Program-made: the position numbers and the translations under genes
Notes under the pieces: generated by a model
Told to the model about the DNA's origin: nothing
The model's database searches: none
Seen by the model: only the letters and a program-made list of their open reading frames with translations
Shown: in pieces, positions 3,033 to 5,745 of the stretch
Layout of the letters: each line of letters opens with the position of its first letter
Position numbering within the stretch: position 1 is the first letter of the stretch
Virus record (IMG/VR): IMGVR_UViG_2534681936_000018
Direction: 5' to 3' (one strand)
Source: a virus
Lineage: Duplodnaviria > Heunggongvirae > Uroviricota > Caudoviricetes
DNA: 5,745 bases

Positions 3033-5745
3033 TCAGCTGATACTGATGCCTGCGGTGGCTTTCTTCATCACCACAACCAGCAAATCGCTGATACTTGCTG
3101 TGGGATACCAGTTATTCACCAGCCATGCTGATACCGAAAACTCCAGCGTCATGTGACCGTGACCGGCAGGCATATCAATAACGCCACTGTAAATCAGCGT
3201 ATTATCCAGCGCGGTACGGTTATAAATTTCAGCACCGTTTTTCCGCACTATCAGACGGCATGAGGAGTAAATATCAGTATGCTCTCTCTCATGTTTAGCG
3301 CCGCTGAATGCCACCGCCGGAATAACAATTTGCCGGTCAAACGGCTGATCGTCATAAACCCTGACGGTAATGGTCCCTGATGGCCACCGCTCCGGTGCAC
3401 GGGAATCCCGGGGGAAAGCTTTGCCCACTGTTTTAACGAGATCGCCTTCAATCTGGTTCGCGGACAGTTTTCCCAGAACCCGACAGTTCTCGTTAATCGT
3501 GACGTTGTTGAGCGTCCCGGAATTCGCATTCACGTTACCGCTGATATCAGCATTTCTTGCGGTCAGCCTGCCCTCCGGCGTCAGGGAAAACGTCGGGGGG
3601 TTGCCGGATGACGTGATACTCACCGCAAACAGTCGTTTCAGGAACACGTCGTTCATGAACAGCTGATTCCCCTGCGCCACAAATAACGGCGTGCTGTTGC
3701 CGCTCTCCGGATTTATCATCGCGATACGGTCAGCCAGCAGCAGTATGTTGCTCAGTGGCTGGCCATCAGTATCCTCAATCCCTGCACCAATCCCGGCCAC
3801 ATAGGGAATGCCGTCTTTCGTTTTTTGAACCTTCAGCATGTACAGCGCAGCCAGGTCATCATTTGTGTCCTTCTGCACGCGCTGTATCTGCTGTATGGTG
3901 GCGCTCTGGTTCTCCAGTGTTTTACTGACCGTCTGTGTGATTTCATTGCGGGTTTCCGTGATGCTGGTCTTCATCTCCGCCATCTCATCTGCAAGCTGGC
4001 TGTTATCTATCAGTTCCCACAACCCCTGAGCCAGATGCAGTTTTCCTATTTTTTCCCGGAAAAATTCCAGATACCCTTCACCATCATTGCTGGGCTGCCC
4101 GCTGACTTCCACAAACGCAGATTTCCCCACCAGGTTGACGCTGCGCACGTAAAACCAGAAATCCTTCCCAGGCTTAATGTGCGGGCCGGATACACTCCAC
4201 TGACTGCCGGTCCCCAGATAACGGGCAGAGGTTTCCACCTGAGATATGTCTAGCGATTTTTGTCTCCGAAAACCAGAACTCAAACTGTACCGTCGGGTCA
4301 TACACCGCAAGACGCGGGACCGCTGTTATCTGAAAATAGCCCGGTGTCAGCTCAATCGTGGCGGGTACCGCAGGTGCATTAATCCTGAACGTGGTGGTGG
4401 CCGGTTCGCCCTGCTGGCCATAACTGTTAATTGCCCTGACTGTCAGGGTGTATTCCCCGAGCGGCAGACCACTGAAACGATGCTCTGTATCCGCAGTGAT
4501 GGCGGTGGTCACCAGACGGCTGTCTTCTCCGCTTCCGCTGGTCAGGCGCAGACTGAAGCGCACACCCTTCACCACCCGCGGCGTGTCCCATTTCGCCTGT
4601 GCCAGATACTGACCGTCAGCCGCGCTCACCTCCACCGTCAGGTGCTACACTGCCGGTGGAATAACGCTGTTCAGGGTGCCTGACTGCGGCTCAAAGCTGG
4701 CCCCGTTATCCACGATGGCTTCTTTTTCCGGTACGTGCTGCACCGCCGTGATGGCAAAGGTGCCGTCCGTGTTTTCCCGGATGGAGACACAGCGGAACAG
4801 GCGACGACGCAGTGACGGCAGGGAGAGTCCCCATACACCGTATGTCTCCACACCATCAGGCAGGGTGCTGACCTGTATCCGGTCCGGCGCGGGGTGTGCA
4901 GTGATGGCCACGCTCACCGGCTTACCGCTGCCGTTAATCAGGTTCACCGTGGCGGCACCTGTCTCCGGCAGGGTCACCTCACGGTCCAGTGTCAGGGTGC
5001 GGCTGGCGGCATCGATGGACAGGATACGTCCACCGGTCAGGGTCCCGGCATAGTCGTTATCACAGATTTCAATAATGTCACCGGGTGTGTGACGCAGCCC
5101 CTGTGACCCGAGCGTGAAATCCACCGTCTGCGTTTCCAGCAGTCCGGTCTTTATCACCCACAGCCCGGCACGGTGGGCCTGACCGCGACTGGTGCAGCCG
5201 AACGCATCCATCTTCAGCAGGTTGCGCCCGTAGCGCAGTATGGCTTCCGGGTCTTCCACCAGTTCCGTGGAGGTCTGCCAGCCGTTCTGCGGGTCGGTGT
5301 AATTCACCTCCACCGCCGTGTGGCGGTCCTTCAGGGCGCTGAAGCTGTAGCGAAACCCCACGCCGTTATCATCCACCACCACATCGCAGTTGGTGTACGG
5401 CCACACCACATCCGACGGGCGGTCCTGAACGAACGTCAGCGTCTGGCCGTTCCATACCGGCATACAGCGCATCGCCGAGCAGAAATCACTGAGAACGTCC
5501 CACGCCTTACGCTGTTGTGACAGGTACGCATTAAAGGTCATCCGCGGCTCTGTGCCCCCGAAACCATCAGGGACCATCTGGTCGCAGTACTGCGCAATGG
5601 CATACAGCGCCCACTTGTCCACATCCGCCGCCCCCAGGCGTTTTCCCATTCCGTAGCGCGGGTGGGTCAGCATGTCCCACAGGCACCAGGCCGGGTTATT
5701 GCTGTATGCCGGTTTCAGGCTGCCGTCCAGATACCGCTGTAAGTG
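3033..5745 (-). pseudogene. J: Host specificity / tail tip protein J (central and C-terminal portions; 5' end beyond the window), disrupted by an in-frame amber codon and a frameshift
   Basis: The three minus-strand ORFs 4645..5673, 4174..4635 and 3033..4310 are collinear with lambda J as I recall it (...HLQRYLDGSLKPAYSNNPAWCLWDMLTHPRYGMGKRLG... to ...PPAV | HLT.EV...WDTP.VVKGV...[28 protein letters not shown] | ...QVETS.RYLGT... to ...GISIS). The reading frame is open from 5745 down to a TAG at 4647-4645, resumes in the same frame to ~4251, and then continues only in a different frame down to the TGA at 3035-3033. Confidence 0.85.

Follow-up and report, generated by a model that had tools for sequence, protein, structure and literature searches.

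In-frame amber codon in the tail-tip gene J of the Escherichia coli DEC5A tccP/espJ prophage is most likely a draft-assembly artefact

In the deposited draft sequence of the tccP/espJ effector prophage of E. coli DEC5A, the lambda-type tail-tip gene J is interrupted by an in-frame TAG codon. The codon is truly present in that sequence, but most likely has no biological reality. Comparison of assemblies suggests that it is a sequencing or assembly artefact and not a biological feature of the prophage, a reading to which we give a probability of roughly 0.85. Stated strictly, the TAG is a difference that independent sequencing of DEC5A did not reproduce. The real J gene of this strain most likely has CAG (Gln621) at the same codon and encodes an intact protein of 1157 amino acids, in the prophage next to yodB. 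The artefact reading is favoured because the assemblies disagree, because the draft stands alone against the two closed genomes and every other J gene, and because the differences are clustered at a contig end within a repeat.

The window (the whole stretch of DNA analysed, 5745 nt) comes from the very end of a draft contig. Direct comparison showed its reverse complement to be identical at 5745 of 5745 positions to the last 5745 nt of AIFQ01000016.1 (L003:1-5745), which belongs to GCA_000249495.2, the draft assembly for E. coli O55:H7 DEC5A; the contig, 171,179 nt long, ends at window position 5745. The locus is the tccP/espJ effector prophage found next to yodB in E. coli O55:H7 / O157:H7. 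The genes of the window, and the three lesions within J, are as follows.

1-591, plus strand: tccP, a type III effector gene, with 2.3 copies of a 141-nt repeat.
717-2301, minus strand: side tail fibre genes, for an N-terminal-domain protein of 437 amino acids and a C-terminal-domain protein of 89 amino acids.
2366-2965, minus strand: lom, encoding an Ail/Lom outer-membrane protein of 199 amino acids, intact.
3033-5745, minus strand: the 3' 2.7 kb of J, the lambda-type tip attachment (central tail fibre) gene, cut by the contig end.
4252, minus strand: an extra base in J, turning the sense sequence GCAGAC into GCTAGAC; a +1 frameshift at J codon 752, outside any homopolymer.
4645-4647, minus strand: in-frame TAG at J codon 621, where closed DEC5A, FDAARGOS_946 and lambda (Gln622) have CAG (Gln).
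5727-5728, minus strand: a missing base in J, where the CCC of both closed genomes is shortened to CC; it shifts the frame by -1 at J codon 261.

Because the window stops at the contig end, it contains J only in part: of the 3474 nt of the intact gene (1157 amino acids), the first 761 nt lie outside. Several lines of evidence identify it as a lambda-type J. The intact J protein of closed DEC5A shares 65% identity with lambda J (NP_040600.1) over its full length (1,159 aligned columns), and the J frames of the window match this intact orthologue once the three lesions are removed. Six Pfam families were detected (FNIII-A_GpJ, Phage-tail_3, Ig_J, Ig_J_second, Phage_Tail_Tip and Ig_GpJ_C), all six above curated cut-offs, and the same six are present on the J fragments of the draft. 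In both closed genomes, the tail cluster runs L, K-like peptidase, I, J, lom and side tail fibre. Similarity, domain set and cluster position therefore all place the window gene among lambda-type J genes.

The order I - J - lom - side tail fibre and the order of the Pfam domains are common to lambda and the DEC5A prophage. However, the C-terminal receptor-binding part of DEC5A J is more diverged, with a net length difference of 25 residues, and the DEC5A prophage, unlike lambda, has sodC between a tail assembly gene and J. This gene encodes a Cu/Zn superoxide dismutase on the opposite strand, just upstream of J (L001 9389-9916, L002 9554-10081), and is a cargo gene within the prophage tail operon.

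Read directly from the window, the minus strand around 4647-4645 is ...CCA CCG GCA GTG TAG CAC CTG ACG GTG GAG..., and its translation confirms what a first-pass annotation of the sequence had described: an in-frame TAG with the J frame continuing downstream. The frame on either side of the codon is homologous to a single continuous protein. That annotation had also given the lambda sequence at this point as PPAVQHLTAEV, correctly so: lambda J reads ...VTPPAVQHLTAEV..., which includes this motif, and its Gln622 is aligned with the TAG codon. The proposed replacement of CAG (Gln) by TAG through a single C-to-T change is likewise upheld. The suggested check, alignment to intact J genes, places CAG at the homologous codon in lambda and in the two nearest closed genomes. 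On the plus strand, the change is G to A at 4647, and it is the sole substitution in 5.2 kb relative to FDAARGOS_946. That the TAG happens to be a stop needs no explaining, because it was flagged for being a stop and a silent error would have escaped notice.

The annotation had placed the resulting truncation at about one third of J. This is wrong, as the TAG is codon 621 of 1157, 54% along the protein. The TAG would not act as the truncating stop in any case, since J in the window carries two further lesions, the 1-nt insertion at 4252 and the 1-nt deletion at 5727-5728. When the missing 5' end is joined from the closed genome and translation is followed from the true start, it ends at codon 264, downstream of the first frameshift and short of the TAG. 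The annotation had reported the TAG alone, and both frame-breaking differences were unreported there. More than one break in J is already visible in the list of minus-strand open reading frames, because it shows a change of frame: 4645-5673 and 4174-4635 lie in one frame, and 3033-4310 in another. On the sense strand, both lesions outside homopolymers place a T before AG (GCAGAC to GCTAGAC, and GTGCAGC to GTGTAGC), which may be a coincidence.

In GenBank, the disrupted gene was deposited as three separate open reading frames (L003, the draft contig, 205-2713), all J fragments on the minus strand:

EHV25192.1, minus strand: 298 amino acids, 'host specificity J domain protein'.
EHV25191.1, minus strand: 129 amino acids, 'host specificity protein'.
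EHV25190.1, minus strand: 371 amino acids, 'hypothetical protein ECDEC5A_2358'.

Among about 15 billion proteins, each of these truncated products was found on one contig only. Exact look-ups gave no protein identical to the 196-amino-acid TccP product of the window or to the longest open reading frames flanking the TAG; with alternative starts, the 371-amino-acid fragment matched, and it lies on AIFQ01000016.1.

The closed genomes tell a different story from the draft. Inspected directly, closed DEC5A (NZ_CP038394.1) has an intact J of 3474 nt with CAG (WP_115203273.1), and FDAARGOS_946 (NZ_CP065607.1) encodes a J protein identical to WP_115203273.1, with no indels. DEC5A and FDAARGOS_946 are both ST7444 and belong to one clade (PMC9413875). 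The gene order tccP, tail fibre, lom and J of the window is that of the tccP/espJ prophage in both closed records (CP038394, CP065607), at 99.7-100% identity; compared with the closed version, the window differs in its three single-base J lesions and in having three fewer tccP repeat units. Thus, the sequence of the draft contig disagrees with the finished assembly of the same strain. The first-pass annotation had named sequence error among its possible explanations, and this one gains support from the origin of the window at a draft contig end and from the CAG and intact J of the closed genome.

The distribution of the differences points the same way. Over 5.2 kb, the window and FDAARGOS_946 differ at three positions, all three of them in J. 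Between draft and closed DEC5A, the only differences in 5,176 nt of prophage are the three in J and a single one at a homopolymer site in lom; the 7,214 nt beyond tccP contain none. Apart from the lom site, all differences between draft and closed genome were directly observed to cluster near the contig end: the deletion lies 17-19 nt from it, the TAG 1,099 nt and the insertion, the most distant, 1,494 nt. The chance that three random events would all fall within the terminal 1,494 nt of 12.7 kb is about 0.0016, i.e. (1494/12713)^3. The contig breaks inside J, of which the lambdoid prophages of DEC5A hold several similar copies (segment 4400-4900 of the window matches three places in the closed record). 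In other draft assemblies, J is commonly 'partial' on contigs of 1-2 kb.

Another part of the window is demonstrably misassembled. Closed DEC5A has 5.3 copies of the 141-nt repeat of tccP (253-572, plus strand), against 2.3 in the draft. The array is collapsed in the draft, so the 196-amino-acid TccP is probably an artefact of collapsed repeats, and a clear assembly fault lies within the same window as the J lesions. The full tccP of FDAARGOS_946 is 1014 nt long and encodes 337 amino acids. In closed DEC5A, the tccP annotation begins 93 nt further downstream and gives 306 amino acids (L001 2419-3339 rather than 2326-3339), and the ATG of the window tccP aligns to L001 2326 in that genome. This length difference looks like a choice of start codon in the annotation.

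The lom site is a C-run (window about 2482-2487, minus strand; L001 about 5230) at which closed DEC5A has one additional base and the gene is annotated as 'frameshifted'. In the draft and in FDAARGOS_946, lom is intact (199 amino acids), leaving closed DEC5A as the odd one out. At this site, the error is likely to be in the closed DEC5A genome rather than in the draft.

Searches for the J variants in other genomes were negative. When 5,426 complete E. coli genomes, closed DEC5A included, were searched with the 31-mer centred on the TAG, nothing matched. This search seeds through a 28-nt exact word containing the T, so the 31-mer test would overlook a paralogue in which other bases up to 12-15 nt from the TAG were also changed. 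For 71-mers carrying the TAG or the insertion, no exact match was found in the same 5,426 complete genomes, the best reaching 98.6%. Neither GTDB representative genomes nor JGI metagenomes contained an exact copy of a TAG-containing 33-mer. Across the 31-mer and 71-mer searches of complete E. coli genomes, no J paralogue emerged as a possible source of the TAG or of the insertion.

How, then, could the draft have acquired these differences? At the J sites, it would be the draft consensus that is in error, and not the closed genome. The final 1.5 kb of this contig, in a multi-copy J, would hold three single-base errors, caused by scant or conflicting read support in a repeat close to the contig end. 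This account is drawn from the disagreement between assemblies. It shares several features with contig-end consensus errors and repeat collapse in drafts, namely a break in a multi-copy gene, clustering at the end and a collapsed tandem repeat. Prophages and repeats are known to trouble short-read assemblies of these genomes (PMC9413875). However, some observations speak against an artefact. Of the three lesions, both the substitution and the insertion lie outside homopolymers, unlike classic pyrosequencing or long-read errors. In this, and in the lack of a donor paralogue among the genomes searched, the J lesions differ from typical contig-end errors. Closed DEC5A is itself imperfect, as its lom homopolymer frameshift is absent from the draft and from FDAARGOS_946, and the two DEC5A assemblies may derive from different sub-cultures.

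This last point opens the way to real decay, the main rival reading. The sub-culture used for the draft might have carried a triply disrupted J pseudogene, making the tccP/espJ prophage tail-defective there and not in the stock behind the closed genome. Decay of prophage structural genes does occur in E. coli O55/O157 lineages. The deposited sequence contains the lesions, with three separate reading frames annotated by GenBank, and the lom frameshift of the closed genome means that small differences are not all on the draft side. We nevertheless regard decay as unlikely. It needs three independent knock-outs of J to separate two stocks whose surrounding 11 kb show no other difference, and one lesion already inactivates J, leaving no selection for a second or third. 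Moreover, all three lie no more than 1.5 kb from the end of a contig broken in a repeat, and the variants occur in no other complete E. coli genome searched (TAG 31-mer; TAG and insertion 71-mers). Neither closed DEC5A nor FDAARGOS_946 reproduces the lesions, as both have CAG and no indels, which is not what a pseudogene would be expected to show. The defective prophage proposed by the first-pass annotation could exist only if the draft and closed-genome sub-cultures differed; the intact J of closed DEC5A argues against it. A related but very unlikely scenario is a chimeric consensus, in which this contig took in reads from a truly defective J paralogue of another DEC5A prophage, such that the TAG would be real but belong to another locus. 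J does exist in at least three similar copies in the DEC5A genome, and the contig ends within it. However, the TAG 31-mer is missing from all complete genomes searched, that of closed DEC5A among them, and the insertion 71-mer has no exact match.

Explanations in which the TAG is functional fare worse. If a supE-type tRNA or natural read-through decoded it as glutamine, full-length J could be made, and CAG to TAG is indeed the type of change that a supE (glnV CUA) tRNA restores to glutamine. Such tRNA genes exist in E. coli records: a 75-mer of supE-type tRNA-Gln(CUA) was found exactly in 155 of them. However, the 60 listed of these 155 are all K-12-like laboratory strains, with DEC5A absent among those listed, and closed DEC5A has CAG. 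The suppressor-dependent phage suggested by the annotation is not borne out. It is extremely improbable, and effectively excluded, because an amber suppressor cannot rescue the two frameshifts in J, at codons 261 and 752, which flank the TAG. Programmed read-through is in practice ruled out by the stop at codon 264, ahead of the TAG. Amber alleles of lambda J (Jam) offer a comparison, as they too turn a glutamine codon into TAG inside J. They are single nonsense mutations in an otherwise intact J of a laboratory phage grown on supE/supF hosts. By contrast, the window J has two frameshifts in addition to its nonsense codon, its host is a wild EPEC isolate, and the TAG is absent when the strain is sequenced again. 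The notion of a natural gene boundary, with J split into two genes at the TAG in this phage group, has next to no probability; the open reading frame calls of the draft are its sole support. The annotation had raised a domain boundary with a separate downstream gene as something that would count against its view, and none was found: in the nearest genomes and in lambda, a single uninterrupted protein is encoded across this codon, which lies 12 residues inside Ig_J, the first Ig-like domain (residues 609-712, Pfam), and not between domains. Directly after the TAG, a start codon in a ribosome-binding context is lacking; the next in-frame starts are GTG codons 3 and 5 codons downstream. The continuous homologues and the position within a domain rule out a boundary here.

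Were the lesions real, they would represent ordinary prophage decay, and an effector prophage would have been caught losing its tail-tip gene within the laboratory history of one strain. The more probable artefact reading carries a caution instead: taken at face value, the draft would lead to a defective or suppressor-dependent effector prophage being wrongly recorded in an EPEC reference strain, whereas the finished genome indicates that the DEC5A prophage has an intact tail-tip gene.
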